In this document: piece by piece, positions 37,273-55,036 of the stretch
How positions within the stretch are numbered: the first letter of the stretch is position 1
Layout: each line of letters begins with the position of its first letter
NCBI GenBank assembly: GCA_963804955.1
Contig: CAWDSQ010000008.1
Location: 1-64,000, forward strand
Origin: an uncultured delta proteobacterium
GTDB taxonomy: Bacteria; Desulfobacterota; WTBG01; CAIYCZ01; CAIRTM01
Length of the DNA: 64,000 bases
Direction of reading: 5' to 3'
Notes under the pieces: model-generated
Told to the model about the DNA's origin: nothing
The model's database searches: none
Seen by the model: the letters and a program-made list of their open reading frames with translations, nothing else
Program-made: the position numbers and the translations under genes

Positions 37273-37348
37273 TCCCCAGTAGCTCAGTCGGTAGAGCGGG
37301 TGGCTGTTAACCACCATGTCCGTGGTTCGAGTCCGCGCTGGGGAGCCA
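37273..37348 (+). tRNA. tRNA-Asn (GTT)
   Basis: 76 nt; acceptor TCCCCAG/CTGGGGA, anticodon arm GGTGG-CTGTTAA-CCACC, GGTTCGAGTCC T-arm, encoded CCA. Confidence 0.98.
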
Positions 37349-37353
37349 ACTTT

Positions 37354-37389
37354 AAAAGCCCGGTTCCGTTAAGGAGCCGGGCTTTTCTT
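37354..37389. terminator. Bidirectional rho-independent terminator after tRNA; same family as the terminators in repeats R1-R5
   Basis: aaaagcccggttcc-gttaa-ggagccgggctttt. Confidence 0.85.
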
Positions 37390-37417
37390 GATTCCAGAGT
37401 CAGTGTGAGCAAAGAAC

Positions 37418-37756
37418 TTAGAGGAATTCTATTTGGTTTTTGATAGCGTTTTTTGAAGAGCGTTGTAAAAAAGTTAACAGCCTGCGAAGGGTTTCTCCAA
37501 TCGGAAGGTGTTTTGAAACAATAATACCAAAATGCTCCCTGCCGCTACCAAGGTATTCGTTATGCAGCAGAACGAAATCTTTCACATTATAGGTAACCAG
37601 GCATCTTCCTTGCTTTGCCGAAAATTGTAGTTGCTCATCATCCGACTTGCCTTTTTGGCTTAGTTCTTGAGCGTGATACGCATCGTAGCCTCTCTGGCGA
37701 AGAGCATGTGCTACAGCAAGCTGCACATCTTCATCCAGCAGCAGTTTTATCTTCAT
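37418..37756 (-). CDS. DUF5615 family PIN-like toxin
   Basis: KLLLDED, GKSDDEQL, LVTYNVKDF and HFGII. Confidence 0.85.
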   Translation of the reverse strand: MKIKLLLDEDVQLAVAHALRQRGYDAYHAQELSQKGKSDDEQLQFSAKQGRCLVTYNVKDFVLLHNEYLGSGREHFGIIVSKHLPIGETLRRLLTFLQRSSKNAIKNQIEFL

Positions 37757-38064
37757 GCGCGCGCTTTCCGTTTTGCCGGGCTGCGCCCTCCTTGTTTTTT
37801 CCAGAAAGCAATATCTGAAGATTCTTTTATTTCACTATCCAGTTCTTTTTGATGGTCAAAATAATATGCAAGAGCGGAATGCACTTGTGCGGAAGTAAGA
37901 TGAGATAGATTTATAAGAATCTCATCAACGCTCATCCCCATCTGGTAATACTCGGCAATACATCTAACGGTAATTCTTGTCCCCTCAATTACAGGTTCAC
38001 CATGAGCAATATCATGCCGGAATATAATGTAAGGATATGTTATTTTTGCAAGAGCTTTACCCAT
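37753..38064 (-). CDS. DUF433 family antitoxin
   Basis: GEPVIEGTRITV and LTSAQVHSALAYY; 4-bp overlap with DUF5615 gene. Confidence 0.9.
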   Translation of the reverse strand: MGKALAKITYPYIIFRHDIAHGEPVIEGTRITVRCIAEYYQMGMSVDEILINLSHLTSAQVHSALAYYFDHQKELDSEIKESSDIAFWKKQGGRSPAKRKARA

Positions 38065-38077
38065 AACAAATATCTCC

Positions 38078-38128
38078 TTAATAATTTATCAAATCCGTTG
38101 AATTGCTGACGACTATTTTTTTTGCCAC
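38078..38128 (-). pseudogene. Truncated N-terminus of a DUF3368-like PIN toxin
   Basis: GTG overlapping the UPF0175 3' end reads (M)AKKIVVSNSTDLINY*. Confidence 0.55.
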
Positions 38129-38379
38129 TGAGCTATGTTCTCCATGTCGGCACGATAGTCCTGAAGGTCATACTGCCGTTCGATCTGCTTATTGCCGAGA
38201 AAAAAATGGAAATCGGTCTTGGTCATATTGGCCAGTTTCCGCGCACTGCCCAGTGACAGCATCCCTTCTTTGTAAAGAGCAGCCGCCAACTCTTTCCTTA
38301 TGGTATTTTTGAGTTTATGTTTTGGAATTTTTGCTTCCAGCAAAATCTCATAAGGTACATCTATTACAATACTGCTCAC
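38113..38379 (-). CDS. UPF0175 family antitoxin-like protein
   Basis: LAAALYKEGMLSLGSARKLA and YDLQDYRAD; GTG start with AGGAG RBS. Confidence 0.85.
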   Translation of the reverse strand: MSSIVIDVPYEILLEAKIPKHKLKNTIRKELAAALYKEGMLSLGSARKLANMTKTDFHFFLGNKQIERQYDLQDYRADMENIAQWQKK

Positions 38380-38467
38380 GGTGAGTCTCCTTTCAATCGA
38401 ACCGGCAGGGCACTGTTGAAATAAACCTTGATTTTTCCGGCTATTACATCCCAAAGACCTATAATGC

Positions 38468-38496
38468 AGTATAGAAAGCAGCGGCTTATGTGTCAA
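38468..38496 (-). promoter_or_regulatory. Sigma70 promoter of module 1
   Basis: Minus strand TTGACA-17 bp-TATACT. Confidence 0.7.
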
Positions 38497-38546
38497 TCAA
38501 AAGATGTGCAACGCTCCAGAGCTACTTTGAAAAACGATGTTGGGAA

Positions 38547-38642
38547 AATTAAAGCGTTACTGTAATCTCCCCGTGCCTAGACATGTCCGGGTTGGGGAGG
38601 CAAAAGTAAAAGCCCGATTCCTTTTGGAGCCGGGTTTTTTTT
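38547..38642 (+). repeat. att-like repeat R1
   Basis: aattaaagcgtta-ctgt-aatctccccgtgcctagacatgtccgggttggggaggca...aaaagcccgattccttttggagccgggtttt. Confidence 0.9.
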
Positions 38643-38665
38643 ATGATTAAGAAAAAGGTGCAGTT

Positions 38666-38995
38666 CTAAAGAAGTGTGTGGAGCTTTGCCATGACTTCAG
38701 CAAGGATATCCTCTGAAACCCGGGCAACCAATTTTGCTTCCCGCGTCTGCCAATCGAGACTCTTGACCTGATCGCTTAAGATAACGCCCTTGATACCTTT
38801 AACATTAACGGAGACCTCAAATGGATAGCCCTTGACCTTGCTGGTAATCGGGCAGAACAAGGCAAGACCAACTCGACGATTATACTCGCGGGGAGAGAGA
38901 ACCAGTGCGGGACGATGGCCGGTTTGTTCATGTCCGCTTTGAGGATTAAACTGAAGCCAGACAATGTCGCCCCTATCCGGCACAAAGGCCGGCAT
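38666..38995 (-). CDS. mazF: MazF/PemK endoribonuclease toxin
   Basis: PDRGDIVWLQFNPQSGHEQTGHRPALVLSP and CPITSKVKGYPFEV. Confidence 0.95.
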   Translation of the reverse strand: MPAFVPDRGDIVWLQFNPQSGHEQTGHRPALVLSPREYNRRVGLALFCPITSKVKGYPFEVSVNVKGIKGVILSDQVKSLDWQTREAKLVARVSEDILAEVMAKLHTLL

Positions 38996-39237
38996 TACCA
39001 GACCTCCTTGCCCTGGGCCGAACCAAAATCAACTTCGCCGTGGATATTTCCTTTTTTAATTTTTTTAAGCATATCTTCAAGCGCAAAGACGGGCTTCTCA
39101 ACGGGCACTATCACCAGGCGGTTGCCTTCCTCAAGTATCTCAACCTGGGATCCTTCATATAGCTTAATATCTTTGGCTACCGGGCTTGGAATCCGCACAC
39201 CCAGGCTATTACCCCATTTTTGCACAGTTGTAATCAT
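38995..39237 (-). CDS. mazE: MazE/AbrB antitoxin
   Basis: VQKWGNSLGVRIP and C-terminal GKEVW; palindromic operator 39257-39279 and TTGACG -35 at 39294-39299. Confidence 0.95.
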   Translation of the reverse strand: MITTVQKWGNSLGVRIPSPVAKDIKLYEGSQVEILEEGNRLVIVPVEKPVFALEDMLKKIKKGNIHGEVDFGSAQGKEVW

Positions 39238-39432
39238 GACAAGCCTCTATGAATAGATGTTTATACATAGTATATACATTCAAAAAGATTATTCGTCAAT
39301 AGTGTTTTATTTAGTACCCCTCTTAGCTCTCCGGTCACAAGTTCAAATTCTTATTTGAAATTGCGTTTAGACGCTACGTTTAGTTTGCATCAGTAATGCG
39401 GAAGGGTTTTTTCAAAGTTGTCCGCAAAGAAA

Positions 39433-39528
39433 AATGAAAGCCTTACAGTAATCTCCCCGTGCCCAGATGGGGTCGTGATGGGGTGCCAATTTTAAAAGCC
39501 CGATTCCTTTTGGAGCCGGGCTTTTTTT
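39433..39528 (+). repeat. att-like repeat R2
   Basis: aatgaaagcctta-cagt-aatctccccgtgcccagatggggtcgtgatggggtgcca...aaaagcccgattccttttggagccgggctttt. Confidence 0.88.
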
Positions 39529-39793
39529 CAAGCAGAATCAGTCTGCCGGATTTAATATCCCGGCAGGCTTTGTACATAAGTCTGTTGGGGTAACGGTCAC
39601 GTTCCTTTCCGGCGGTTTTGACAGCCCGGCCACGAGCCTGCAGCGTGTACAGATACCAGATCTATTTTTGCCTGTATGAAGTGCTTCCCGATGGCGCAGG
39701 CAGCATATACCTGTTTCAGCGAAATCCTCGCGCGGCTGCGTCCTGCGCGCATGCTGGCGAAATCGTTCGGCGCAAGCCAGGCCTCGCTTGAGC

Positions 39794-40594
39794 TTATCGC
39801 ATCATGGATTCAGCTTTTACTCCTGCATCGAGAATTATGATGTCAACCCGCCGGTTCTGCTGCCTGCCCGCCTCGCTGTCATTGCCGGCAACAGGGTAGC
39901 TTTTGCCGTATCCTTTTGAAACAATCCGATAAAATGGGACCTGCCTGCTCAGCAGTGCATTGCGCACAGCCTCTGCCCGGCGCTGCGACAGCTCAAGGTT
40001 ATAGGACTCAGAGCCGATGCTGTCGGTATGGCCTTCGATCAGCACCGAACGGTCTGTGTGCTCGCTTAAAAAAGCCGCCAGCTGGTCGATGGTGCGATTC
40101 GCGCCGGGAAGCAACTGCGCCTTATCAAACTCGAACAACACATCGCCCAGCGTCAGCACCATGCCGCGGTCGCTTTTTTTGGCATTCAGCTCCGCAAGCT
40201 CTGCCGAAAGCTTGTCTGAGCGTTTGCGCTCAAGATCGATTTCCGCATCGCGTGCTTCCAGCAGTACCTGGTTCTTTTCCCTGCCCAGCTCGGTAATGGT
40301 CGCGCCGGAGAGCTTTCGGTCTGCCACGGCCACGGCAATTTGAGCTTTGCGCTCGGCAAGATAGGCCAGGTATTTTACATCCTCGATATTTTCCGCCTTT
40401 TCGGCCTGCTCCAGGGCAAGCTCCGCGTCATACATCTCAACCTGCGCATATTCATTCACCCAGGTTTTTGCTTTTGCTGCAGTGTAGGCGCTGCGCGCCC
40501 GCAGCAGATCAGGCTGATTGGCAGGTATGCTGCTGCAGCCTGCAAGCATGGCGATAAGGATGCAGTATAAGAGATACTCAAATGGTCGCTTCAT
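39794..40594 (-). CDS. OmpA-family lipoprotein with N-terminal DUF4398-like helix
   Basis: Lipobox LAGC; DVLFEFDKA, IEGHTDSIG, NLELSQRRA and NRRV. Confidence 0.9.
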   Translation of the reverse strand: MKRPFEYLLYCILIAMLAGCSSIPANQPDLLRARSAYTAAKAKTWVNEYAQVEMYDAELALEQAEKAENIEDVKYLAYLAERKAQIAVAVADRKLSGATITELGREKNQVLLEARDAEIDLERKRSDKLSAELAELNAKKSDRGMVLTLGDVLFEFDKAQLLPGANRTIDQLAAFLSEHTDRSVLIEGHTDSIGSESYNLELSQRRAEAVRNALLSRQVPFYRIVSKGYGKSYPVAGNDSEAGRQQNRRVDIIILDAGVKAESMMR

Positions 40595-40607
40595 GGCGAG
40601 CCTCCTT

Positions 40608-40997
40608 TTAGGGCTGTTGTCTTTTTTTTATCCGTTCAGCTTCACCTTGAAGCGCCTCGATGCTCTGCCGCATTTCAAAGGCATCCTTTTCCGCCTTGGC
40701 CGAAAGGGCTTTCTCCTGGGCAAGCTGCGCATCAAGCAGTGCTTGATCTATAAGCCGCTCGGCCTGTTCATACTCCTCGTCGGCGATTGCTTTTTTCGCC
40801 GCCTGGTACTTGTCTTCAGCAAACCGCAGCTCCAGTGGCGCATACGTGGAAGCATCAGCCTTGAGCGCATCATTGATGGCATATTCAAGGTTGGCCATTT
40901 TGCCTGTCGGCGCAATCCCGGCGCAGGCTCCGCTGAGCATGACCAGAATAAGGAGAACGCAACACCTCAAGTTTTTTTGCTGTACCAGCAGATTCAT
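40608..40997 (-). CDS. DUF4398 lipoprotein
   Basis: Lipobox GAC; YAPLEL...A; typical pairing with an OmpA-family gene. Confidence 0.8.
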   Translation of the reverse strand: MNLLVQQKNLRCCVLLILVMLSGACAGIAPTGKMANLEYAINDALKADASTYAPLELRFAEDKYQAAKKAIADEEYEQAERLIDQALLDAQLAQEKALSAKAEKDAFEMRQSIEALQGEAERIKKRQQP

Positions 40998-41103
40998 ACG
41001 GACCTCATCGCAAAATAGTTTTGGATTGCTTGATTCAGATTCAGCGCCAGAAAATTATAATTTTTTTTAATGACAGTTGCAAACACTGAGTTTTCCGCGG
41101 GTG

Positions 41104-42971
41104 CTACTTGAAGCAATCTGCGATATCTACCGTATTACTCTCCCTGACTGCCGTATACTTGCTCCACCAGAGGGCATCGATTTGTTTCAGATAGGGCTTT
41201 GTGCCGGGCGTACGGTAACGGGCGAGATGGCCGGGGCCGCCATTATAAACAGCATAGGTTGCCCGGGCAAGGTTGTCGGAGCCCCCGGTCTGAAGGTGCT
41301 CTTTTTTTGCAATCGCATAATCCCGCAGATAATGGAGCAAAATCTCGCAGCCTGCCCGACCATTGTACACGATATCTCCGGAGAGACCGGCGGGATCATA
41401 GATGCCGCGCCAGACTTTATGATTTATCTGCATAATGCCCACCGATGTGCCATTTGAGGACATGAGGGGGGTGAGCTTATTGTTTTTCCGGATAAACTGC
41501 TGCCAGCAGCTCTCCTGCCAGGCAGTGGCAAACACCATGTCGTGGAACAGGGTATGGTAGTGCGGGTCGAGCTTCTTTTTCTCAAGGGCCTCTGTTGCCA
41601 GGTTATCCAGCAGCTGCTGCACCAGGGGGAGATATATGTCAATATCCTTTTTCTCCGGCGCCCAGTTTTTCAACTTTGCATACGCATCGGTTTCTGCCCA
41701 GGCTTCCTGAAGAGACAGGCAGGCTAAAAAACCTGACGGCGCAGCGTTCTGCACGCTCATGCCGGCATCAAAATCAGGGGGAATTGACGGCGCAGGCAGG
41801 GGGGCTCCCAGGCCCAGCAGAGTGCGCAGCTCAGGATCTATGTCGGTTGAGTAGCTGACTGGGTCCTCGGCTGCCTTCGAATCAAGCTTGCGGGAAATAA
41901 TGCGCAGGCTGTCATCAGAGAGTTCAATGCCGCTGTCCCGGCCCCCCTGGCTCAGGGATATGGCTGCATCGGCGGTGGTAATAAAGCTGGTGGCATCCTG
42001 CAGCTCCCGGCCTGGCTGGGCGCCTGCGGTCATACCCATGGCTGCCGAGCGCACCTGGTCCCAGGTCAGCGCGAACAGATTCGGCAGCTGCTCCCGGGCC
42101 CCTGCGTCTACGGCACATTGTAGTTCGGCAATTGCATAGCGCGCATCAAGAAGTGCTGCCAGGCATTTTTCGCGCTCCGGCCCCGTATTCCTGCGGGCCA
42201 TGCGCTTGACAGCAAAGGTGAGAAAGGCATCCCAGCTCTCCAGCCTGCGCCGCTGTTGCTGCTGCCACATCTTTTCAATCCGCTGCTCACGTGTCGGCTT
42301 TGTGAAAGTCGGCGGAACCCTCACCTCGATCAAAACGCCACGGCCGTCAGGCGCCATTTTGAGTTTTTGTACGGTAATGGATTCGGCCAGGGCTTGTGCC
42401 TCCTCGGGTCTGCTGGGCAGCATGGTTGGCAGCAGCGCGCGCAGCTCGGCCATCGGGCTGGAGAAATCAACCCTGAGCGCTTCGATGCGGGGATACAGGT
42501 TGTTTTTGATGATGCTGTAGAGTTTCAGGTCCGGATGACCTGGAGTGCGGTTTTCATCAAGCAGCCTGTAGCCCGTAATTTTTAAGGCCGCTGAGCTGGT
42601 GGCGGGATCAAGCCACGGCTCGAGCAGATATTTCCACAAATCCTTTCCATTCACGGGAGCCCGTGCAGAGCGCCGTCCTGTATTTCGCCAAGATGAGCGC
42701 TGCCCGGCATGGTGATTTTCAGGCAGCTTTTCTGTACGTCAACATACGGCCTCGCAAGGATAAAGCGGCTGCAGCCGCCGTCTTCGTCAAGAATTGTACA
42801 CTGCTCATCGGGCTCTTTGAAAATCTGCTCCAGCAGGGGGGCTCTGATAAGGCCGGAATCAAAATAGAGCGGCACCTTAAGCAGTGTGGCGGGGCAGGCC
42901 TCAGGCGCAAACCCGAACAGGATCAGCGCCACGAGTGCACTAATTGCTGCGCAGGGAATGGTGATTTTCAT
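41104..42971 (-). CDS. Large exported protein with C-terminal lytic transglycosylase (SLT)-like domain; indel near 42655
   Basis: ATAWQESCW (catalytic ES), GIMQIN and AVYNGGPG; signal peptide in ORF 42651..42986. Confidence 0.78.
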
Positions 42972-43378
42972 GGCCGGTTCTTTCATAATGAATCAGCAAA
43001 CGGTGCATGTATGCGGGATCGGCAATGACAAAAGCCGGATTCCTTATCGATACTACATTGTTGAAGAGATGGATTCTCTCAGCAGCTTTAATAATTCCCT
43101 GAGGATGCCCTGCAAAGCTTTCTTTTATGCTAATCCTTGCGGCTAAAGGCAAGCAGCTGCTGTGTAAGGTGCTAGATGCCTGCTTTGGAATAGTGCAAAT
43201 ATAGGCCGATGGTTGTTATGAGTCAAGGTAAATGCCTGATCAGAATAACCTCGCGGGGGTGGGGTGAGGTGTGCGCTGAATATCATGTATCACAATGTGT
43301 TATGCTCTTTCTGAATCGCCAAAATTCCACAGTGCGGCTACTTGCCAAAACAATTTGCGGAATATTTCGATATGAAAA

Positions 43379-43474
43379 GATCAAAGACTTAAAGTAATCT
43401 CCCAGTGTCCAAACGGATCCGAGCTGGGGAGCCCCATTTAAAAGCCTGATTCCGCGAAGGAGCCGGGCTTTTTT
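43379..43474 (+). repeat. att-like repeat R3
   Basis: gatcaaagactta-aagt-aatctcccagtgtccaaacggatccgagctggggagcc...aaaagcctgattccgcgaaggagccgggctttt. Confidence 0.88.
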
Positions 43475-43897
43475 GGTGTCTGCATGGTTTATTAACGTGT
43501 TTGTTTTGCGTTATAGCGGAACAGGGAGATACTATGTCAGCCGACAAGCGCTCGGACATTTAGCTACCCGTTCTTATTGTGTCGGCGACATAATTAACGG
43601 TTGTATGCTTGCTAAAATAAGAGAAGATCGGGTTAGGCTTGAGTGCGATGGAGAAAAGGTAAGACTTTATCTGCATTGATACAGTAACAGCGTATTTTGA
43701 TATCGAGAAGCCTTCAGGTCATGTGCCTGCGCTCGGGGAATTTGGATATATCCCCCGCAGGTGAGCCGCCCTGAGGCCTAAAGATGCATGCAACCCAAAA
43801 TTTTGATATTCCCCCCAAGGTAGTAAGATAAACTGAACGGACAGCTGTTATAAAGAAAATTTGAATGTACTTTATCAGCGTTTCTGTACTCCATAGT

Positions 43898-44425
43898 TTA
43901 CAGCCGTTTTTTTTCTAACCAGTAAAACAGAAAAAGTCCGCCGGCGATAAAAAAGAGAATAATTATCCAGGGGCTCACACCCAGCATCTGGGGAAGCGTG
44001 ATCTTTCCAAAATCCCCCCATGTTAGAAGTGTTTTTTTAAGTGCAGGATAGGCCTCAGCAAAAAGGGCTGCCCCTGCAAGCATGCCAAGCACCCCCCATA
44101 GACCATCAAGCCGACCTTCTGCAAGCGCACCCACCGATGTTCCGGGACAATAGCCAAGTATACCCCAGCCGATGCCAAAAATAAGGCCTCCAGGAATAAC
44201 AGCGCCCAGAATTGTCGGCTTAACAGAGAGTGTGGCAAGGCCGAAATCCAGTAATGCATACACGCCGATCATGCCCACCATCACGGTTGAAAACATAAAT
44301 TTTACAATGGTCATGTCCATGAAGCGCAGTGCCCCAAGCTGCCGGTCATACCGAAGCACGCTGCCGCGCTGCAGAAGAAAACCAAACAGCACGCCGGTTA
44401 CCAATCCGTAGAGGAGTGTATTCAT
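43898..44425 (-). CDS. YeeE/YedE (sulfur/thiosulfate transport) family protein
   Basis: FGFLLQRG and GGLIFGIGWGILGYCPGT. Confidence 0.88.
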   Translation of the reverse strand: MNTLLYGLVTGVLFGFLLQRGSVLRYDRQLGALRFMDMTIVKFMFSTVMVGMIGVYALLDFGLATLSVKPTILGAVIPGGLIFGIGWGILGYCPGTSVGALAEGRLDGLWGVLGMLAGAALFAEAYPALKKTLLTWGDFGKITLPQMLGVSPWIIILFFIAGGLFLFYWLEKKRL

Positions 44426-46516: not shown

Positions 46517-48078
46517 GCCGGTTGATCTCCTGTTGGCTTGGCCGGGAATAGTATAGTGATTAAAAGAATGCCGCCGTCCGCCGGCTGTATGGCAAGAGTC
46601 CCGCCGTGCTCCTGAACAATGCGCCGCACGATGGCAAGGCCAAGGCCCGTGCCGTCCGGCCTGCCGGTAAAATAGGGCTCGGTGATCCGTGCGACTGCTT
46701 CCCCGGGCAGGGAAAAGCCGCCGTTGGTCATCGCCAGGCGAATGTCACGGCCCAGGTCGTCTATGACTATCTTTATAAATCCGCCACGGGGCTGGGCTTC
46801 CATTGCGTTTTTGAGGAGGTTTTCAATGACCTGCTCGATCAGATCCTGATCTCCGGAAACAGGCCGTGCCGAATCAGCCACAAGCTCCACGCTGATGCCC
46901 TGCTGCCGGCAGCGAGCCTCGTAGAGCCGCAGCACTTTTTCAACGCTGCGGTCAAGCCGCACGGCATGCCGCACCAGGGCGCGAGGCACAGCATAGCTCA
47001 GCAGATCGCTTACAATGCCGTTGGTCCTGCGAACGGCGTCACGCATGATCTCAAGCAGGGCCAGGTTCTCACCACTCAGTGCCGGCGCTTCTTTCTGCAG
47101 GCGCTGCAGTCCCATGCTCAGGGCGTTCAAGGGGTTTCGTATCTCATGCGCGATTGCGGCCGCGGCTTTTCCCAGTGCCGCATCCTGCCGTTCGTCAGCG
47201 ATCTTTTTTTCATATGCGCTGATCTGCGCCAGATGCTTTGCCTGCTGCCGGTACAGCACAAGCGACAGCACCAGCCCCAGGCAGGCAACCGCTGCGCTGA
47301 AGCCGATAAAATCGCGCCACAGCCGCTGCATGGCCGTTTCAAGATGCGCGGCATCAAGGCCTACCGTCATGCCGGTTTCGCCCACGGTCATGTTCACTTC
47401 AGCAACCGCCGCAGGGCCGCTGCCCATAAGTTCGACCTGCTGCTCACGCCCCGTCTGCGCAGAGTTGTTTCCGGCAGGCATCGTTCTGATGTACCGAATA
47501 CCCGGAAGCCGCGTGATGGTAGCTATAACCGCTTCAAGGCCGAGCTCTTTTTGGAGCTTTTCTATCCGGGCCGCTTCAACCCCTACCAGCACCCATCCTC
47601 CCTTGTTCGAGTCGGGCCAGCGCAGCACATATAAGTGGGATGCAGCATTATACTGGAGCAACGGCGTTTTTTCAGGATGCAGAGACAGAGCTTTAGTCCA
47701 GCCTGGAGGACCTTCCACAACAGCCCCGCCGGGTCGCGCTATATATATGCCGGCCAGGCTCGCTTCACGGGCAAACCCCGACAGTTCGCCTGCGGTAAAC
47801 GGCTCGATAGCATCAAGATAGAGGATAAAGCGGGCAGTATTGCCCAGAAAGGTCTGCAGCAGTTCCTCGGACACCTGCTGCGACAGCAGCGCACCTTTTG
47901 CGCTTAACTCAATGACATTGGCGACAAGCCCTGAGGCCTCCTTGATTCTTGCGATAAAGGCATCACGCGTCACCTGCGCCTGCCATAGAAAATAGCCGAC
48001 AATGGCTGCAAACATACAGCCGAAGGCCAGCAGGTTGCTGACCCAAAGCGGCAGCGACCTACCGGCCGCCCTGGCCAC
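46513..48078 (-). CDS. Membrane sensor histidine kinase (ZraS-like)
   Basis: GTG 48078 with GGAGG RBS; two TMs; AHEIRNPL and GTGLGL. Confidence 0.85.
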   Translation of the reverse strand: MARAAGRSLPLWVSNLLAFGCMFAAIVGYFLWQAQVTRDAFIARIKEASGLVANVIELSAKGALLSQQVSEELLQTFLGNTARFILYLDAIEPFTAGELSGFAREASLAGIYIARPGGAVVEGPPGWTKALSLHPEKTPLLQYNAASHLYVLRWPDSNKGGWVLVGVEAARIEKLQKELGLEAVIATITRLPGIRYIRTMPAGNNSAQTGREQQVELMGSGPAAVAEVNMTVGETGMTVGLDAAHLETAMQRLWRDFIGFSAAVACLGLVLSLVLYRQQAKHLAQISAYEKKIADERQDAALGKAAAAIAHEIRNPLNALSMGLQRLQKEAPALSGENLALLEIMRDAVRRTNGIVSDLLSYAVPRALVRHAVRLDRSVEKVLRLYEARCRQQGISVELVADSARPVSGDQDLIEQVIENLLKNAMEAQPRGGFIKIVIDDLGRDIRLAMTNGGFSLPGEAVARITEPYFTGRPDGTGLGLAIVRRIVQEHGGTLAIQPADGGILLITILFPAKPTGDQPA

Positions 48079-48658
48079 CCCGGCCTCCTCCGCTCCCGCC
48101 TGCGCCGCCTCCACCACCACCGCCTGAGCCTCCACCACCACCGCCTGAGCCACTTCCTCCGCCGAACCCGCCACCACCACCGCTTGAGCCACTTCCCCCG
48201 CCGAACCCTCCTCGGCCACCACCTCCACCGGCCCCTCCTCCGAAGCCGCTACCGTGGTTGCCGCCGCCTGCCGAACCCTTGCCCAGGCGCTGCCGAACCC
48301 CGGTCGAGTCTTGCGGGCCGGCGCCCCGTTCACCTGGCTGGCCTGCTGGCCCTTTGCCCCTGCGGTCATTGAAATATGAGTTTGATGCGGAAAAACGACC
48401 GGTGCTTTTATCCATAGAACCCCATACCCGGACAAGCGCGTTCTGCTGAGTATTTTTCGGCAGGGCCGTTCGTTCGATCGTAATGACCTTAGGTTTCTGG
48501 CCGGCATCATCACGTAAGTCGGCAGGGCCGTCGACTACTTCCATCTGAACTGTACCCTTGTCCTGATCAATGGAGATGACCCGGCCGAGTATCAGCTCTT
48601 CGGCGCTGCAGTACGAGATGCACAGCAGTGAAATTAAAAATACCAGGAAAAACCGCAT
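48059..48658 (-). CDS. Exported protein with Gly-rich C-terminal tail
   Basis: Signal peptide; DSTGVRQRL followed by poly-Gly. Confidence 0.7.
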   Translation of the reverse strand: MRFFLVFLISLLCISYCSAEELILGRVISIDQDKGTVQMEVVDGPADLRDDAGQKPKVITIERTALPKNTQQNALVRVWGSMDKSTGRFSASNSYFNDRRGKGPAGQPGERGAGPQDSTGVRQRLGKGSAGGGNHGSGFGGGAGGGGGRGGFGGGSGSSGGGGGFGGGSGSGGGGGGSGGGGGGGAGGSGGGRGGQGGR

Positions 48659-49683
48659 TGCGTCACCATCTGATGATAGAACTCAGAATTTACTTTTGAA
48701 TTGTTTTTAAGCCACGTCATTTTGCCGTAGACCTCCACCGGGCCGAAAAACCGGCTGACCTGCGCTCCCGCGAAAAACGTTTTATCAGTGCGATTCGTGT
48801 GCAGCGGGCTTTCATCATAGGCCGTGCGCCACAGCCCCGACTCAAGCTGCAGCCGCCAGACTTCGGTCATATCCCAGGTGAGACGGGTGCTTGCATGCAC
48901 CTGCCGGTAGGTTTCAAAGTCGTCGGTAGAATGAAGCCGCGAGTAGCCAGTGAGGATACTGCCGTATACTGTCGGCGTCAGAAACAGGTCGCAGATAAAG
49001 TCGCCGTTTGTCAGATGATCATTGCGCGAGGTTTTCACGACCGACAGCTCCTGCAGATCAGCCTCGGCCCCGCTGCCGCTGCCAGCCAGAGAAAGAAGCC
49101 CCGCGGCAGATGCTTCCTGGCCTTGCGGCTCGGCATAGCTGTAGGAGGAGTTTTTGTAGTTCAGGCGGCTGTAGGTCCCTTCAAGGGACAGTGTCATAAA
49201 ACGGGAATATATCCAGCTCAGCCGCAGGCCGGCAAGATACTGGTCCCGATCGTCCTCCGGCATGTAATCATCGCGGTAAGAATTCGCCTCCACAAGCAGC
49301 GCCGGCACCAGCCGGCTTCCCAATACCGGACGGGCCAGCTCGCCGCGGGCTCTTAAAAAATAATTGTCGCCCACGCGCGTATAGTTTTGATAACTGCCCT
49401 CCAGCAGACCCATAAAACTTGCGCCACCCCCAAGCTGCCAGGTATCGGACATGCCGGCCCGATGGAATATAAAGCCGGAGCCTTTCCGGTTATTGGTCTG
49501 CGCGGGGTTGTCATTATATCCCGCAGACGTCTCCAGGCTGAAATCTGCGCAATCAGCGACTGATGGCCATGCATACGACATAAACACCAAGCTCCCGCAG
49601 ATGAGCACAAGCAGCCTCTCCCGCCAAATGCCTTTTTCTATCTGCTCAGATACTCCGGAAATTTTTTTCGTAAGGCTCGCCAA
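48634..49683 (-). CDS. Putative outer-membrane beta-barrel protein
   Basis: AGYNDN start of mature part, alternating strands, C-terminal FSWYF. Confidence 0.7.
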   Translation of the reverse strand: MASLTKKISGVSEQIEKGIWRERLLVLICGSLVFMSYAWPSVADCADFSLETSAGYNDNPAQTNNRKGSGFIFHRAGMSDTWQLGGGASFMGLLEGSYQNYTRVGDNYFLRARGELARPVLGSRLVPALLVEANSYRDDYMPEDDRDQYLAGLRLSWIYSRFMTLSLEGTYSRLNYKNSSYSYAEPQGQEASAAGLLSLAGSGSGAEADLQELSVVKTSRNDHLTNGDFICDLFLTPTVYGSILTGYSRLHSTDDFETYRQVHASTRLTWDMTEVWRLQLESGLWRTAYDESPLHTNRTDKTFFAGAQVSRFFGPVEVYGKMTWLKNNSKVNSEFYHQMVTQCGFSWYF

Positions 49684-49922
49684 AACCTGCTTGCTCCGGG
49701 GGTTCGCTTTTGTTGGCTAAAAAAGCTCTGCTCAAGGCCAGTACCGCACTCGCAAGATCCAGCCCAAAATTGTTTCTACTTTTACTTTACTGCACATGCA
49801 TTGTATTGCAATAATTATTTTCTATTGTGCAGGCGGGCGGCAAGCACGGCTTGCGAACCCCAAAACCGTGGTTGCCGCTGCCCTCTGGAACTGCACATCC
49901 GCCCGCATAGCATGCTTACTGC

Positions 49923-50444
49923 TTACTTTTTCCCGCCGTACCGGCCACCCCTCCACAGGGGTTTTCCCGTATCGGGATCGCGCAGCTGCACCTCCGTGCC
50001 GTTCACGGTGATCGTCATGGCTATATTGCGCTCAACGCCGGAAAAGTTCACCGTATAGCCGCTGGCCGACACTTCGTCGCCAACCTCCGGCCGGTCAACA
50101 TCAAGCTTGTCCCAGTAGCGCACAGGGCCGATGCCGTACACGGTAGCATTGTCTTCTGCCGTTGCAATCACCATGCCCTGGCCGTAGCCTATGCTGATAA
50201 CAGTTCCTTCATACACAAAAGGCGTTCCTTCAAGAATACCCTGGGCTATTCCGCTGTAGTTTGCCTGCGTGCAGGTGCCGTTGCCCTGTCCGCCATTTGT
50301 GCCATTATACTGCTGGCCGCCCTTGGTGCCGTTACCATTGCCGTCGCTGCCATTGCCACCATTACCATTGCCGGCATAGCCTGAACCTGCTCCGATCAGC
50401 ACCGCCAGAGCAATAATAAAAGCTGTATATAAGGTCTTTTTCAT
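49923..50444 (-). CDS. Exported Gly/Asn-rich OB-fold-like protein
   Basis: Signal peptide; GIGPVRYW and LRDPDTGKPLWRGG. Confidence 0.75.
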   Translation of the reverse strand: MKKTLYTAFIIALAVLIGAGSGYAGNGNGGNGSDGNGNGTKGGQQYNGTNGGQGNGTCTQANYSGIAQGILEGTPFVYEGTVISIGYGQGMVIATAEDNATVYGIGPVRYWDKLDVDRPEVGDEVSASGYTVNFSGVERNIAMTITVNGTEVQLRDPDTGKPLWRGGRYGGKK

Positions 50445-50570
50445 TTTATCTCTCCTGTTTTTTTGTTTTTCATTCACCGATTATTAAACTCTTTCTGGCT
50501 TTTTCACTATTCATCTTCCGGGGGGCATCACCGTCCTTTCTCACAGTCAACGATTCTGCCCATTTGTCAT

Positions 50571-50673
50571 TACACGAATAATGCCAAAACATTTTTCATG
50601 TTTTTTCAGCAAGTTGCAATAATCGGCACTAAGCCTTTTCGACAATCATTGTTTTCACCCGACAAAATTGTCG
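50571..50673 (-). promoter_or_regulatory. Possible sigma54 promoter with CGACA-type enhancer sites
   Basis: Minus strand TGGCATTATTCGTGTA (GG-N10-GT, variant -12); palindrome cgacaaaattgtcg 50660-50673 and a partial copy at 50640. Confidence 0.4.
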
Positions 50674-50845
50674 AACAGTAGGATTTTGACTTCTCACTAC
50701 AGTAAAGGTTCAGCATACTTCTTTTGGAGAATACTTTTCAACTTGCCAGTTATGTATGGTGGTTCGATCAACCCCCAGCTTTTCAGCTGAGTGACAGTTG
50801 ATGGTATCCTTTATTTGAAGGGGTTTTTTAAAGGCGAAGAAGGCA

Positions 50846-50940
50846 AATTAAAGGGTTACGGCAATCTCCCCGTGCCCGGATGTGTCCGGGGTGGAGAGCC
50901 AAATTTAAAAGCCCGATTCCGCAAGGAGTCGGGCTTTTTT
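50846..50940 (+). repeat. att-like repeat R4
   Basis: aattaaagggtta-cggc-aatctccccgtgcccggatgtgtccggggtggagagcca...aaaagcccgattccgcaaggagtcgggctttt. Confidence 0.92.
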
Positions 50941-51155
50941 ATTCATAATGCCGCTGTTTTTAAGCTCGTAAGAATGGAAAAGCAGACCGATTATATATTT
51001 GTCAATTTATTTCCTTTCTTCCCCGCGCCTGAAGGGCTGCTTTCCTCGGAGGTTGTGAGAAGGGGGGCGCCATGCTATATTAACAGCAATTGGGTGGTTG
51101 ACCCGTAACGCAACAAATTGCGAAATGCGCATATCAACAGAGAAAGGAATAAGGC

Positions 51156-51432
51156 ATGAAAAAAGTACAAGAATTGATCATTCTTTGCGTTGCCGCTATC
51201 TTTATAGCGGCTGCAGGATTCAGCAGTGAAGGCAGATGTGACGAGCATCCAAAAGCAGACCATCCGGCTGTCGAAGCACCAAAGGCTGCTCCTCCACAGG
51301 CTGAACAGCCTGTTGCGGACCAACCAAAGGCCGACCAACCAAGGCCGACCACAAAGCTGAGCACCCCAAAGCTGAACATCCACAGGCAGAACCTCCCAAG
51401 GCCGACCATCCGTCATCGGAACATCCGCGATG
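51156..51432 (+). CDS. Small exported protein of (K/Q)A(D/E)(H/Q)P pentapeptide repeats; one indel near 51350
   Basis: Signal peptide, then DEHP KADHP...AEQP ADQP KADQP KAEHP KAEHP KADHP SEHPR. Confidence 0.65.
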
Positions 51433-52819
51433 ATGGTAAGGTCTGTGAAGCGTCAGTTGACATGCCTCTCGGCATGCGGCTGCCTGTTTGCACTGCTGGC
51501 GGCCCTTGTTGTAGCTCAAGGCTCTATCCGGGAGGCATGGGCGGTCACGGAGAGCAAGCCTGCCGCCTCCGCTCTGCCGGCCGTTGTGACCGCTGATATT
51601 CAGGCCGGCATCGAGCGCCACATCGAGCAGCAAGCGCGCCTGGGTGAGGGCTACTTTCGCCTGCAGTTCAAGGATCGTGAGCTGCGGCTGAAACTGGTGC
51701 GGGTACACACCGAGTATCTTGCAAACCTGGGTCCCCGGCGGCATTTCGCCTGCGTTGACCTGGCGGATGTGAGCGGCGACGTGTACGACGTTGATTTTTT
51801 CCTTTCGGGCGATCCCGGCTCCATGACCGTTACCGAGACGACCGTCCACAAGATAAACGGTCAGCCTTACTACGCGTGGGAGCAGAAAAAGGACGGGACC
51901 TGGCACCGGATACCCATCGAGCGCGCATCGGAAGGGCATTTCGGCGTTATCCGTGAGCGAGACAACTTTGAGTTCAAGTATTGGGCGAGGCTGCCGGAGC
52001 TGACAGCCCCGGCGCGCATGTGGCTTCCACTGCCTGAAACGGACCGGTTCCAGACGATTGAAATTGTCTCTATGCTGGTTCCCGGCAGGCAGCGCATTGT
52101 TCATGACCGCAAGCACGGCAACCGCGTGCTGATTTTGGACCTGGCTCCTGACGACAGCGGACGGGACAATCGATATCCGTTTTGCAGTGCGGCGCAGCGA
52201 GAAATCCGCCTATGCAGCGCCGAAACCCGAGGAAATGCACCTGGCGCCTGACAGGCTCGTGCCTATCACCGACGAGTTTCAGGCAACGGCGCGCACGGTC
52301 GTCGCCGGCAAAAAGGAAGACCTCGTGCGGGCCCGTGCGCTCTACGATCATGTGATAGACCGCATGCGCTACATGAAATATGGCGATGGCTGGGGCAAGG
52401 GGGACGCCGTCTACGCCTGCAGCATTCGAACCGGCAATTGCACGGATTTTCATGCCTATTTCATCGCGCTGGCCCGGTCGATCGGCCTGCCGGCGCGTTT
52501 CGCGATAGGAGCAGGCATCCCCTCCGAGAGAAACGACGGCGGAATAGACGGCTATCACTGCTGGGTAGAGTTTTATGCCGATGGCAAGTGGTGGCCTGTG
52601 GACATCAGCGAAGCAGATAAGTATACAGCCCTTTCAACATATTATTTCGGCCATCATCCGGCCAACCGTTTCGAATTTAGCCGGGGCCGTGATTTGGAAG
52701 TTGACCCGCTTCCGGCATCGGGACCGATCAATTTTCTTGCTTACCCTCTGCTGGAAGTTGCAGGACAACCGGTCAGGGCCGACGTCGCGTTTTCGTTCAA
52801 GAGAACGGTTCAGCATTAA
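51430..52819 (+). CDS. Exported transglutaminase-like domain protein; indel near 52165
   Basis: GNCTDFH, YHCWVEFY and WWPVD give the Cys-His-Asp triad. Confidence 0.85.
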
Positions 52820-52840
52820 TGGGGGCTTAATTTAATCGAA

Positions 52841-52923
52841 CAGCAATCTCCCCGTGCCCGGATGTGTCCGGGTTGGAGACCCAAAATTAAAAGCCCGACT
52901 CCTTGCGGAATCGGGCCTTTTTT
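52841..52923 (+). repeat. att-like repeat R5
   Basis: cagcaatctccccgtgcccggatgtgtccgggttggagaccca...aaaagcccgactccttgcggaatcgggcctttt. Confidence 0.92.
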
Positions 52924-53165
52924 CTTTTAAAGCCACGGACAAAACAGGGGGAACATTGTTGCATGTGTCGAATTACCAGCATTGCAGCCAATGCCTTGAA
53001 AATTGCCGGGGCATAACCGGGGCAGCCCTGGTGCTGCAAAAGCGCGCACAAAGTTGGGCGGTAAACGAGGTGGATACAGGTAATCAAACAGACCCTGTCA
53101 AAAATTTTACTGCAGCCTTAAAAAATTCCTCACGAGATGCTGCATAAAATCAAACAGGGCACAGG

Positions 53166-53826
53166 TCAATCCATGACACAACGCACACTAATGCCGTAGT
53201 CCTTGGTTACGCCTGTATAGTCCCTTAAAATTCCGCTCTGGGTCATATCCAGCATCATGGTCCAGGCGTGGGTGTCGTCGTACTCAGTAGAGGTCCAGAT
53301 CATGATGTGGTACCCCAGCATTTTAAAAGTGCCCGCAGGATTACGGTTACCGCTTGGCAGAGCGGAAAACCCGCTTGAGTTTGTGGCTCCCGTATTAGGG
53401 CTGTGCCACAGGCCGGTTCCGGCTTCAATTGTTCCGGTTGCTTTCAGCCTCCCACCGGCAATTTTGCTTATTTCAAATCCATCGTTTGGCTCCGAGCGAG
53501 GGTCCAAATATTTTACAAGGGTTGACCACTCCTCGTCACTTCCCAGGTGCCAGCCGGCAGGGCAGGCAGTCAATGCTGTTTCCCAGTCATAAAGCCTGCC
53601 ATAGGTTTCGCAATTTTCAGGATCATCATCATAACACCAGCTGTTCCCGGTCTCGTAGTTAAGGTCCTGCGCAAGCCAGGTCTGATCTCCGAGCTTCACC
53701 GTTTTGTATGTCTGCCCATCACGTGCATCCGTCATTTCACCCAAAACGGGTTTTATTGCAACCACCGGTACATAAAAACAGAATTGCCATCATGATTAGT
53801 AAAAATGGTTTAATTGTTTTTTTCAT
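53166..53826 (-). CDS. FISUMP (Fibrobacter succinogenes major paralogous)-like domain lipoprotein; indel near 53750
   Basis: DARDGQTYKTVKLGDQTWLAQDL, YGRLYDW, CPAGWHL and SVRC. Confidence 0.85.
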
Positions 53827-53897
53827 TTTACTCCTCCCTGTTACGGCATTTTACTGAAGCCCGGCTAAATACCACACAACGTCAATCAGGGTGTATT

Positions 53898-54593
53898 TTA
53901 GTCCTTAAGGCAACGCACGGAAAGGCTTGTGGCCCTTTCCATGCTCCACTGACCTTCCTCCGCCCGGTAAATGGACTTGAGGCCGTAATCAAGGACACGG
54001 AACCAAACTTTGCTGTTGGCGTTTTCAGTAGAGGTCCAGTAGATGGCATGCCTGCCCATAACATCGCAAGAGCCATCGTCGTAACAGACACCGGCAGGCA
54101 CAGCGGAAAATTTGCTTGAGTTTGTGGCTCCTACATTAGGGTAGTTCCATAACCCGGTTTCGTCTCGTAAGTTGCCGGTTGCTTTCAGCATACCACCAGC
54201 CCATATGCTTTCTTCCACAACGCTGGAACCCGCTTGAGGGTCCGCCTTGGGATCCAGATATTTTATAAGGGTTGACCACTCCTCGTCACTTCCCAGATGC
54301 CAGCCGGCAGGGCAGGCTGTTTTCGATGCTTCCCAGTCGTATAGCCTGCCATAAATTTCGCAATTTGCAGTGTCGTCATCATAGCACTTACTTTCATCGC
54401 TCGCGTAGTTAAGGTCCCGCGCAAGCCAGGTCTGCTCTCCAAGGGTTACTGTTTGATAGGTCTGTGCATCGCGAGCATCTGTCATTTCTCCCAAAACAGG
54501 TGTAGGATCAGGAGGTGGGGTTTTTTTGCAACCACCTGCAAATAAAAATAACAAGGCCATCATTATTAGTGAAAATGTTTTAATTCCCTTCAT
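53898..54593 (-). CDS. FISUMP-like domain lipoprotein (tandem paralog)
   Basis: Lipobox AGGC; same motifs; TTGACG-17-TATTTT promoter at 54652-54680. Confidence 0.87.
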   Translation of the reverse strand: MKGIKTFSLIMMALLFLFAGGCKKTPPPDPTPVLGEMTDARDAQTYQTVTLGEQTWLARDLNYASDESKCYDDDTANCEIYGRLYDWEASKTACPAGWHLGSDEEWSTLIKYLDPKADPQAGSSVVEESIWAGGMLKATGNLRDETGLWNYPNVGATNSSKFSAVPAGVCYDDGSCDVMGRHAIYWTSTENANSKVWFRVLDYGLKSIYRAEEGQWSMERATSLSVRCLKD

Positions 54594-54934
54594 ATGCTTT
54601 CTCCTTGTTAAGGGTTTTATTTGCCTTGGCAGGCGTCTTTGCACTAGATTTAAAATATCAAAAATATAAATTTACGTCAATATGTTTTATGGACTCATAG
54701 AGGCTCTTTGATCTTAAATCGTAAATCTAACCTTAAATCGTAAATCGTGTCTTCGACCGTAAAACTGACCACTCAAATGACCTGACTTACAGGATTTCGG
54801 CCAGAAGCCTGGCGTTCAAACTATAGGAAAAATTTAATTTTTAAGATGTCGTGTTCAGCAAAGGGCCCAAATCAAAAGGCTTCTGAAGATTCGGAGGGCC
54901 GGTGAGAACGGGGCAATAAACAATGGCGTGGTCC

Positions 54935-54974
54935 GTAATTTCCCGTGCCCGGATGTGTCCGCGCCGGGGAGCCA
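54935..54974 (+). repeat. Terminal att-like repeat R6 with near-exact tRNA-Asn 3' end
   Basis: gtaatttcccgtgcccggatgt-gtccgcgccggggagcca versus tRNA gtccgcgctggggagcca (one mismatch in 18). Confidence 0.9.
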
Positions 54975-54981
54975 TATATAT

Positions 54982-55015
54982 ACTGCCGCAGCTGTAAACG
55001 AAAGCGGCAGTTTTG
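54982..55015 (+). terminator. Distinct terminator after R6
   Basis: actgccgc...gcggcagt-tttg. Confidence 0.65.
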
Positions 55016-55036
55016 TTGTGGCGCTTGATTCTGCCG

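Follow-up and report, generated by a model that had tools for sequence, protein, structure and literature searches.

The window analysed here is a stretch of 64,000 nucleotides (nt) from the genome of an uncultured delta proteobacterium of the phylum Desulfobacterota (contig CAWDSQ010000008.1, positions 1 to 64,000). It contains a tRNA-Asn(GTT) gene followed by six gene cassettes, M1 to M6, each of which is followed by a copy of one tRNA-derived repeat, R1 to R6 (Table 1). This tRNA is the only one that ARAGORN calls in the window and the sole tRNA-Asn out of 49 tRNAs in the assembly, which comprises 36 contigs with 4.26 Mb and is 87% complete. We denote the genome of the window as G000, the compared genomes by G-numbers, extracted loci or contigs by L-numbers and the contigs of G000 by C-numbers. 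An initial annotation had read the region as an integrase-free, possibly integron-like cassette array inserted at the tRNA by a recombinase acting in trans, and the six same-orientation repeats that it noticed downstream of tRNA-Asn were recovered by both the repeat search and the profile search.

Table 1 The tRNA-Asn array of the window, in order along the + strand
Feature	Coordinates	Strand	Content	Evidence
tRNA-Asn(GTT)	37273..37348	+	Anchor; last ~17-21 nt repeated in each repeat	ARAGORN; Rfam tRNA 65 bits
Terminator T1	37349..37392	+	Bidirectional terminator hairpin of type T1 after the tRNA; left arm of cassette M1	Repeat search, alignment
Cassette M1	37393..38544	-	DUF5615 (PIN-like) 37418-37756; DUF433 37753-38064; UPF0175 38113-38496	Pfam
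Repeat R1	38545..38645	+	Site arm, tRNA-like pieces, CCA and terminator	Profile E 2e-26; covariance model 112 bits
Cassette M2	38646..39430	-	MazF 38666-38995; MazE 38995-39237	Pfam
Repeat R2	39431..39531	+		Profile E 8e-27
Cassette M3	39532..43376	-	OmpA+DUF4398 39794-40594; DUF4398 40608-40997; 516-aa protein with weak SLT match 41104-42654; 111-aa ORF 42651-42986	Pfam
Repeat R3	43377..43478	+		Profile E 7e-24
Cassette M4	43479..50843	-	Split YeeE/Sulf_transp pair 43898-44955; sigma-54 response regulator 45170-46516; histidine kinase 46513-48513; porin-like 48634-49683; 184-aa ORF 49923-50477	Pfam
Repeat R4	50844..50944	+		Profile E 1e-28
Cassette M5	50945..52825	.	Transglutaminase-core protein 52187-52819 (+); unassigned overlapping ORFs 51220-52116 (-) and 51430-52251 (+)	Pfam, NCBIfam
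Repeat R5	52826..52926	+		Profile E 1e-24
Cassette M6	52927..54915	-	Two Fib_succ_major paralogues 53166-53765 and 53898-54644	Pfam
Repeat R6	54916..55018	+	Site arm and core nearest to the tRNA end, then a different, T2-like terminator	Profile E 5e-19
aa, amino acids; ORF, open reading frame.

The repeat search reveals a 98-nt unit that occurs five times (at 38545, 39431, 43377, 50844 and 52826, with 67-83% identity to the first), and a 55-nt repeat family adds the tRNA end (37332) and a sixth copy (54958). All six copies are on the + strand and divide 17.7 kb into six modules of unrelated content, and their spacings of 1254, 886, 3946, 7467, 1982 and 2091 nt agree with the module sizes of ~1.2, 0.8, 3.8, 7.4, 1.9 and 2.0 kb in the initial annotation, whose gene assignments also agree for the domains that Pfam can name. 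When the six-copy profile was run on the whole 4.26-Mb assembly with nhmmer, R1-R6 scored E-values of 1e-28 to 5e-19 and the tRNA end 2e-12, and the further matches were three degenerate copies (E 7e-5, 5e-4 and 1e-3) followed by a bare terminator (E 2e-3). Since the six strong copies are all at the tRNA-Asn locus, the repeat is not a dispersed repetitive extragenic palindrome or miniature inverted-repeat transposable element; the genome-wide scatter that had been considered as a challenge to the cassette reading amounts to the three degenerate copies. An Rfam scan of positions 36000-57000 (E<=1) returned the tRNA only, with three other matches far under their gathering scores.

We aligned 43 copies of the repeat from G000 and other genomes and found that it is built from four parts. 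The first is a conserved arm of ~20 nt that is not related to the tRNA, and the second is a stretch of ~16 nt, more than 90% conserved, that resembles the first bases of tRNA-Asn (12/16 with one gap, counted by eye). The third consists of a variable stretch of ~11-14 nt and TGGGGAGCCA, which jointly correspond to the last 17-21 nt of tRNA-Asn including the CCA, and the fourth is a bidirectional terminator hairpin of at least three types, namely T1 (after the real tRNA here), T2 (after R6) and T3. The alignment thus shows the proposed likeness of the right half of the repeat to the tRNA 3' end and its following terminator, and all 43 aligned sites end in a tRNA-derived ...GAGCCA. In the window, the tRNA has the right arm only, the five inner repeats have both arms, and R6 consists of the left arm, the core and another terminator; this layout is the pattern left by tandem site-specific integration. 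A T1-type terminator also stands directly after tRNA-Asn in G002, G003, G020, G015 and G016. The two tRNA-like pieces are able to pair like an acceptor stem. With regard to a selected fold of the site as single-stranded DNA or RNA, 40 copies speak neither for nor against it: covariation is lacking in the acceptor-like helix and the inner hairpin, at least as many double changes arise in 155 of 500 shuffles as in the real sites, and the majority of pairs are invariant, so that we make no claim of a selected fold.

A covariance model built from R1-R5 was run on 61 related genomes and detected the element in 13 of them including G000, namely in all four congeners, in another genus (G013), in another family (G020, 97 bits) and in a further family of the class (G034), among others. 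Within the order, which has only 21 genomes, ten match at E<=1e-4. An exact-pattern scan of metagenome contigs revealed at least 23 loci on 20 contigs, and one 48-kb contig contains at least nine sites. In 14 arrays, 32 complete intervals range from 353 to 7467 nt with a median of about 2.0 kb, and their cargo is mixed, comprising toxin-antitoxin pairs, lipocalin, glutathione peroxidase, aldo-keto reductases, a resistance-nodulation-division (RND) pump, an electron-transfer flavoprotein, cytochrome bd, a molybdo-hydroxylase and an RHS protein, in varying orientations. Nearly all genomes of the order have a different sequence directly after their tRNA-Asn. A scan of genome contigs with a pattern in the G000 spelling of the site gave nothing, and a second pattern found only five contigs of metagenome-assembled genomes (MAGs), labelled as uncultured delta-proteobacterium, Thermodesulfobacteriota or Proteobacteria. 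No site carrier was found among viral contigs in three pattern scans, which gave no match, one chance match within a gene and, at the end of a provirus, one tRNA-Asn that is unrelated, respectively.

The window cassettes themselves recur in these relatives. The genes upstream of tRNA-Asn in the window (PfkB-DUF4416, PNP, RR-HATPase_c_2 and a 159-aa ORF, by Pfam) are shared with G003 at 87-96% aa identity, and the G003 array runs from a cassette that we call cassette A through mazEF (M2, 93% aa), an RND cassette, a broken GIY-YIG gene and M1 (94% nt) to M6 further on (88% nt). M1 thus occupies the first place in G000 and the fifth in G003, and it recurs at 94% nt in L031 as well; M2 also has copies in G003 and L031, where it lies between different neighbours. 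The mazEF cassette separates cassette A from the RND cassette in G003 and is absent between the same pair in G002. At the right end of cassette A, G003, L037 and L005 do not differ at any of the 110 nt that lead up to ...GAGCCA, and immediately after this point the three diverge into three different next cassettes. The RND cassette ends with the same sharp break between G003 and L006. The possibility of a module order fixed among relatives, with breaks away from the repeats, is thus contradicted by the changed position of M1, the presence or absence of mazEF, the three successors of cassette A and the breaks at the CCA. The start of M3 is 91% identical to the metagenome contig L035, and the homology of M6 with G003 ends at 54940, within R6. 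The G+C contents of M1 (0.418), M2 (0.450) and M6 (0.475) are below that of the genome (0.524).

Across the shared cassettes, homology starts 4-17 nt before the CCA end of the left repeat and ends at -1 to +1 of the right repeat, or at +9 in some pairs. In the closest pairs (>=94%), the left arm and the variable stretch go with the cargo at their left while the terminator goes with the cargo at its right; therefore, the exchange takes place within the last ~10 nt of the tRNA copy. As read from these alignments, a cassette consists of a terminator arm, the cargo and a conserved right arm that ends in the tRNA-Asn 3' copy (...GAGCCA), and the exchange point lies within or at the end of that copy. 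The comparison marks the locus as a gene-swapping hotspot, since at this very joint relatives hold different packets or an element with a serine recombinase.

We also placed Logan contigs from four metagenome runs on the region, with related strains at 90% likeness; contig depth and uncovered parts were uninformative. All ten joints of one joint table lie in or beside repeats, which is weak support given that the flank lengths are not reported, and examples include the tRNA followed by M2 without M1 and R2 followed by a tRNA-type arm. Joints near 45.2-46.0 kb were discarded as derived from other organisms through the conserved sigma-54 ATPase domain.

Two side observations concern the cassettes of the window. 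The N-terminal part of the 666-aa M4 histidine kinase (48066-48233) contains imperfect short repeats with periods of 9-39 nt, which are C-rich on the + strand and encode Gly-rich sequence on the coding minus strand; related strains in metagenome run X3 carry several small deletions there. The two Fib_succ_major genes of M6 together with their upstream regions are a tandem duplication (53500-53815 and 54250-54585; 252-nt and 68-nt repeats with 82% identity), and the pair is conserved in G003.

The degenerate repeat copies outside the array are at C8:114873 (114840-114990; L047:6841-6990), C7:423913 (423890-424020, minus; L046:5891-6021) and C14:223331 (223300-223450, minus; L045:6301-6451), and no recombinase adjoins any of the three. 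The C14 copy retains the entire T-arm of tRNA-Asn. The C8 copy is 60 kb downstream of the array on the same contig and strand, adjoins FMN_red and ATC_hydrolase genes that resemble cassette A genes of G002, and could be the old distal end of a much longer array.

Since the repeats hold pieces of both tRNA-Asn ends and a terminator and show no covariation, we considered whether a local duplication of tRNA-Asn simply gave rise to locus-specific terminator or tRNA-pseudogene repeats without any role in gene movement. The comparative data already contradict this explanation, because several genera and another family (97 bits) have this repeat on either side of unrelated cargo, the cassettes are reordered with breaks at the repeat, and almost no two genomes of the order agree in the DNA that follows tRNA-Asn; we regard its chance of being correct as negligible.

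A second possibility is that the array is a row of eroded tandem islands, in which each module lost its own recombinase by deletion and none moves without one. Decay of islands to remnants flanked by attachment (att) sites is described as common in the parts of the literature cited here (the model of cis-mobilizable elements, CIMEs, in PMC5704250; tycheposon islands, bioRxiv 10.1101/2020.12.28.424599), and the sites of G000 are indeed degenerate. However, neither Pfam searches of the 204 ORFs (31+55+118) of the array-bearing stretches nor six-frame or tblastn searches revealed a recombinase remnant, and no decayed integrase was found in the modules. Even units of 353-890 nt are bounded by a complete site at either end and reappear next to different neighbours, and a single cassette is present in G003 and absent in G002. 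We therefore give the eroded-island explanation very little credence.

The search for a recombinase was carried out on several levels. Pfam finds neither a tyrosine nor a serine recombinase among the 204 ORFs, nor any conjugation or relaxase family; the sole transposition genes are one DDE_3 transposase (L041) and one sub-threshold rve match (L042). Six-frame searches failed to detect a tyrosine recombinase within the window or a serine recombinase anywhere in the G000 assembly, in agreement with the initial annotation, which had recognised no integrase in the window. No unit among the window cassettes combines its own site-specific recombinase with a replication module (Pfam). A six-frame search with PF00589 in six genomes (G000, G002, G003, G004, G013 and G020) gave no match on an array contig, with the exception that the G000 array contig has its match nearest to the window far outside it, at C8:165317. 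Six recombinase pieces of G000 compared by tblastn with 308.5 kb of array loci gave nothing at E<=1.

Several candidates were rejected on their distribution in the 21 genomes of the order. A 228-aa tyrosine integrase of G000 is present in G000, G003, G011 and G014 and does not track the arrays. An integron-integrase-like gene of G000 was not found in the array-bearing G001, G003, G004, G013 and G020 and does not track them either. Y1 transposases occur in 20 of the 21 genomes and are therefore non-discriminating. A retroelement origin of the CCA break, by tRNA priming or a tRNA-like 3' end, was dropped because no reverse transcriptase was seen in the arrays and the cargo orientation is variable. 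As a separate observation, the integron-integrase-like gene (L049:4792-6288; G000:C32:99791-101287, minus) is split by an insert of ~0.66 kb that carries a small CopG-antitoxin-type pair on the opposite strand; TIGR02249 gives 185 bits for the N-terminal half and PF00589 matches the C-terminal piece, and a run of small ORFs with an Mrr nuclease gene follows up to L049:10610. This C32 locus may be a chromosomal integron with a disrupted integrase.

The left arm of the site matches the consensus for integration host factor (IHF) exactly in 18 of 34 sites outside G000, compared with 35 of 20000 shuffles. This match fits an array that is moved by a lambda-type tyrosine integrase with IHF, encoded on an unbinned tRNA-Asn-specific phage or integrative element; mobile elements are often missing from MAGs. 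Insertion into the 3' end of a tRNA gene, by which a piece of the tRNA is displaced, is moreover the classic pattern of such enzymes in the passages cited (Islander; bioRxiv 10.1101/2020.12.28.424599). We nevertheless consider this alternative unlikely. None of roughly 60 sites adjoins a tyrosine integrase, the distribution of the two non-Xer integrases of G000 in the 21 genomes does not follow that of the arrays, the conserved sequence extends only about 60 nt to the left of the core and leaves no space for arm-type sites, the three viral-contig scans found no site carrier, and the corresponding joint in G004 is occupied by a large serine recombinase (LSR) instead.

The upstream genes in G004 are the same as in the window (PNP, RR-HATPase_c_2 and PilZ), and are followed by a hairpin-bearing pseudo-tRNA-Asn, tRNA-Asn, a new terminator of type T3, a convergent LSR gene, four small ORFs, an 854-aa primase-polymerase (Prim-Pol) protein and the contig end. 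The LSR of 540 aa is intact with Resolvase, Recombinase and Zn_ribbon_recom domains, and its last 13 codons run antisense through the tRNA 3' half, with the stop in the anticodon loop. Its joint is ...GAGCCA|, the same point as the cassette boundaries. Unlike the window cassettes, this element has its own recombinase and a Prim-Pol replication gene. A search with PF00239 over the 21 genomes of the order found frames of LSR size only in G001, G004 and G013, all of which bear arrays. As for a recombinase that co-occurs with the repeat, the tyrosine integrases of G000 do not follow the arrays, and LSR-size frames are confined to array-bearing genomes. The pseudo-tRNA of G004 is a 78-nt tRNA-Asn look-alike (L083:2690-2767), called as a tRNA by ARAGORN and placed 27 nt upstream of the true gene, in which the 3' strand of the anticodon stem, the variable loop and the 5' strand of the T-stem are replaced by a hairpin, the same as after the GIY-YIG gene described below.

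Homologues of the G004-type LSR occur in nine of 401 sampled genomes of the phylum. At eight of the ten homologue loci scanned, the C-terminal end of the LSR gene directly adjoins a tRNA gene (for Asn at four loci, Arg at two, and Glu and Met at one each); one of the other two is at a contig edge and one has no tRNA. Taken together with the position in G004, this indicates that a family of LSRs targeting tRNA ends exists and has a member at this site in the genus. In G009, of the same family, a 49%-identical LSR remnant is beside tRNA-Asn with a T3-like terminator. In G349, of a distant family, a probable far end of an LSR element at tRNA-Asn lies 16.3 kb away (L098:16400-16520) and consists of a shortened copy of the tRNA 3' end and then a terminator. 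Viral contigs queried with the G004 LSR yielded no related locus.

The site also has a partial symmetry. The 8-mer GTGCCCAG of the cassette arm is 22-29 nt before the CCA end, and its inverse CTGGGCAC is 14-21 nt after the CCA end in the T3 arms of G004 and G009 and 15-22 nt after it in one L042 array junction with a standard left arm. The two are symmetric around the bases GA, which lie 4-5 nt inward from the CCA end, and a different inverted hexamer is symmetric around the same place in the G349 lineage. We infer that this symmetry would fit an LSR site of about 50 bp. The sites of the staphylococcal cassette chromosome (SCC) are likewise described, in the part of PMC13739063 cited here, as two half-sites around a central GA.

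From these results, our preferred explanation, which we hold with moderate confidence, is that non-autonomous cassettes have accumulated at the tRNA-Asn end by site-specific recombination, through a recombinase acting in trans, most likely an LSR, and that the copy in the window is inactive and decaying. The recombinase would be supplied by an autonomous element with the same site specificity, and the likeliest candidate is a tRNA-end-targeting LSR such as that accompanied by a Prim-Pol gene at the same joint in G004. Cassettes might be gained, lost and reordered either as small circles or by excision and integration together with the helper (cis-mobilisation); SCC and pseudo-SCC islands as well as CIME accretion, whose behaviour the array shares, know both routes. 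The core of the earlier proposal, cassette insertion at the tRNA by a trans-acting recombinase, is thus backed by the genome comparison and the G004 LSR, while the defining features of an integron are lacking.

Several points weigh against this explanation. Genes of LSR size are found in only three of the seven array-bearing genomes of the order, and those of G001 and G013 belong to a different subfamily and have no tRNA-Asn core beside them. The G004 LSR contig stops before the far end of the element, at which a left arm shared with the cassettes would be expected, and the end of that contig does not overlap in sequence with the beginning of the array contig. The inverse 8-mer is missing from T1 and T2, the common terminator arms; therefore, most junctions are not symmetric LSR sites, and the IHF-like left arm would be more typical of sites for tyrosine integrases. 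All arms are alike, and the BLAST end points therefore bound the exchange point rather than map it. The outward joints of excised circles that had been proposed as a check were not borne out, since neither a circular form nor a cassette-circle joint was identified in the Logan contigs of the four runs. Finally, all compared genomes are incomplete MAGs, and it is by its position in a relative that the LSR is a candidate enzyme for the array sites.

A different kind of enzyme is encoded at the locus in several relatives. A GIY-YIG gene of 86-92 aa lies directly behind tRNA-Asn in G007, G008 and G015 and inside the arrays of G004 and L034/L039, and it is a pseudogene in G003 (loci L056:850-1673 in G008, L065:1200-2100 in G007, L068:150-760 in G015 and L002:813-1073 in G004). 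The protein is YhbQ/UPF0213-like, with 1ZG2 as the nearest solved relative (E 6e-5). The gene invariably has the orientation of the tRNA, and behind it there is always an incomplete tRNA-Asn copy with a perfect hairpin in place of part of the anticodon arm; the stop codon of the gene lies inside the anticodon-loop copy in G004, G003 and G007, and the partial copy begins shortly after the stop in G008 and G015. G008 additionally contains four empty 62-nt tandem units of the gene-less partial-tRNA/hairpin kind. These observations would fit a nuclease-stimulated homologous exchange, in which a YhbQ/Ssn-like GIY-YIG protein encoded at tRNA-Asn cuts tRNA-like sites and repair from other arrays through the ~20-60-nt repeats adds or removes cassettes without a site-specific recombinase. 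There are precedents in the parts of two reports cited here: SegB, a tRNA-gene-associated GIY-YIG homing endonuclease, drives segmental amplification (PMC13096335), and Ssn GIY-YIG proteins cut single-stranded DNA at their own hairpin repeats (PMC11893778). However, the arrays of G000, G002, G013 and G020 lack such a gene at the locus, the occurrence of small GIY-YIG genes is non-discriminating because 21 of the order's 21 genomes have them, and the GIY-YIG cassettes have a different left arm consisting of an anticodon-loop piece and the hairpin. The conserved non-tRNA arm on unrelated cassettes and the break in identity that is sharp to one base also fit site-specific exchange better, and we consider the nuclease explanation quite improbable. 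Two further observations concern this gene family and its surroundings: G007 carries two 119-nt tandem copies of the promoter and tRNA 5' half upstream, and outside the window, at G000:C30:16850-17700, a small GIY-YIG gene lies between direct repeats of ~200 nt with short tandem motifs and hairpins and no tRNA near.

Returning to the site-specific array that we favour, the copy in the window differs from the others in the state of its sites. Both conserved motifs (GTGCCCAG and GGGGAGCCA) are intact in none of the six window sites compared with 25 of 34 elsewhere (Fisher p 0.0013, with relatives that are not independent). Because no site is intact and no LSR or LSR remnant was found in the G000 assembly, the copy is probably decaying, that is, an array that lost its enzyme and drifts. 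The window would then represent an end state, an array without its enzyme whose six sites are all mutated.

We also entertain, as a tentative extension, that each cassette moves on its own within a system that would correspond to the integron but be based on a serine recombinase. A single LSR, encoded on a Prim-Pol element elsewhere, would cut out individual cassettes as small circles and insert them, acting at the tRNA-Asn end and at every internal site, and the tRNA-like site that keeps both strands of the acceptor stem would be the recognition module. If this is true, the arrays would represent a widespread, undescribed gene-capture system. If a serine recombinase acting in trans shuffles the cassettes, uncultured sediment and freshwater Desulfobacterota own a compact gene-capture site that would act in the manner of an integron with other parts; the cargo seen comprises toxin-antitoxin pairs, efflux pumps, redox enzymes, stress proteins and regulators. 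This would help to explain how 'additive' tRNA-proximal islands are built without a visible integrase, and the short defined site with a matching recombinase might serve as an integration tool.

Integrons have an integrase gene next to the primary site (attI) and combine small cassettes, mostly promoter-carrying or single-operon, with one family of recombination sites, the attC sites, which are imperfect palindromes with conserved 7-nt core sites, and toxin-antitoxin cassettes are common in them; clusters of attC sites without an adjacent integrase are known as CALINs. The arrays resemble integrons in their small cassettes between sites of one family and CALINs in the absence of an adjacent recombinase. 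In contrast, the array anchor has no intI, the sites are tRNA-derived instead of attC, and exchange occurs at the tRNA CCA end; no match to the integron core-site consensus was seen at the array boundary. The intI-like gene of G000 is interrupted and unlinked to the array, being located on a different contig, and its distribution does not follow that of the arrays. The array is therefore not an integron, and 'integron-like' applies by analogy only.

There is a close likeness in layout and enzyme class to SCC and pseudo-SCC elements, which the cited parts of PMC13739063 and bioRxiv 10.1101/336396 describe as tandem elements at the 3' end of one conserved gene (rlmH), sharing the same short site and moved by the LSRs CcrAB or CcrC. 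Some SCC elements have no recombinase and rely on the enzyme of a neighbour (PMC13739063, in the part cited), the arrays likewise consist of tandem units without recombinase at the same short site, and an LSR is the only recombinase seen at an array joint (G004). With regard to the paired half-sites, the inverted 8-mer symmetry is found only in G004, G009 and one L042 junction, and most junctions have no right half. The arrays further differ in that the target is a tRNA gene rather than rlmH, the cassettes are far smaller (median 2 kb, minimum 0.35 kb), the site holds both tRNA-end pieces and a terminator, the array stretches examined carry no recombinase and the phylum is another one.

CIMEs, as modelled on ICESt1/ICESt3 in the cited part of PMC5704250, are att-flanked, carry no integration or transfer genes and lie in tandem at a tRNA 3' end, and the cassettes are likewise att-flanked units without recombination or transfer genes. 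CIMEs are mobilised only by a helper of the same site specificity (same source, in part), which for the cassettes would be the proposed situation. They are described there as decayed ICEs (elements both integrative and conjugative) or IMEs (both integrative and mobilizable), usually one or two per site, whereas the arrays comprise up to nine or more small units with no trace of decay products. An origin by ICE or IME decay is not borne out by the 204 ORFs, and the candidate helper is an LSR/Prim-Pol element rather than a conjugative element with a tyrosine integrase.

The tycheposons of Prochlorococcus (bioRxiv 10.1101/2020.12.28.424599, in the passages cited) also form tRNA-anchored islands with tandem elements separated by partial tRNAs. 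Their plan of recombinase, replication module and cargo fits the G004 element, and most of their island DNA is outside autonomous elements as in the array. However, 910 of 937 tycheposons have tyrosine recombinases and their remnants have no clear boundaries in that account, while the array units have sharp, conserved boundaries of ~100 nt and recur as units. The additive islands of Alteromonas, according to the passages of PMC4898812 cited here, hold variable cassette sets at tRNA hotspots in an order independent of phylogeny, with near-identical cassettes in distant relatives. These passages describe no common composite site or enzyme, whereas the arrays have one conserved site per cassette and a candidate enzyme.

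The GIY-YIG/hairpin tRNA cassettes are a recurrent member of tRNA-Asn arrays and the sole tRNA-Asn insert in three other genera; they are absent from the window, and their site arm is unlike the arm on the cargo cassettes. In the open-access literature searched, we found no account of arrays at tRNA-Asn with this type of site. What distinguishes the arrays from the systems above is the combination of a conserved composite site of ~100 nt per cassette, very small units, array stretches that carry no recombinase where examined, the LSR/Prim-Pol pairing and the lineage.

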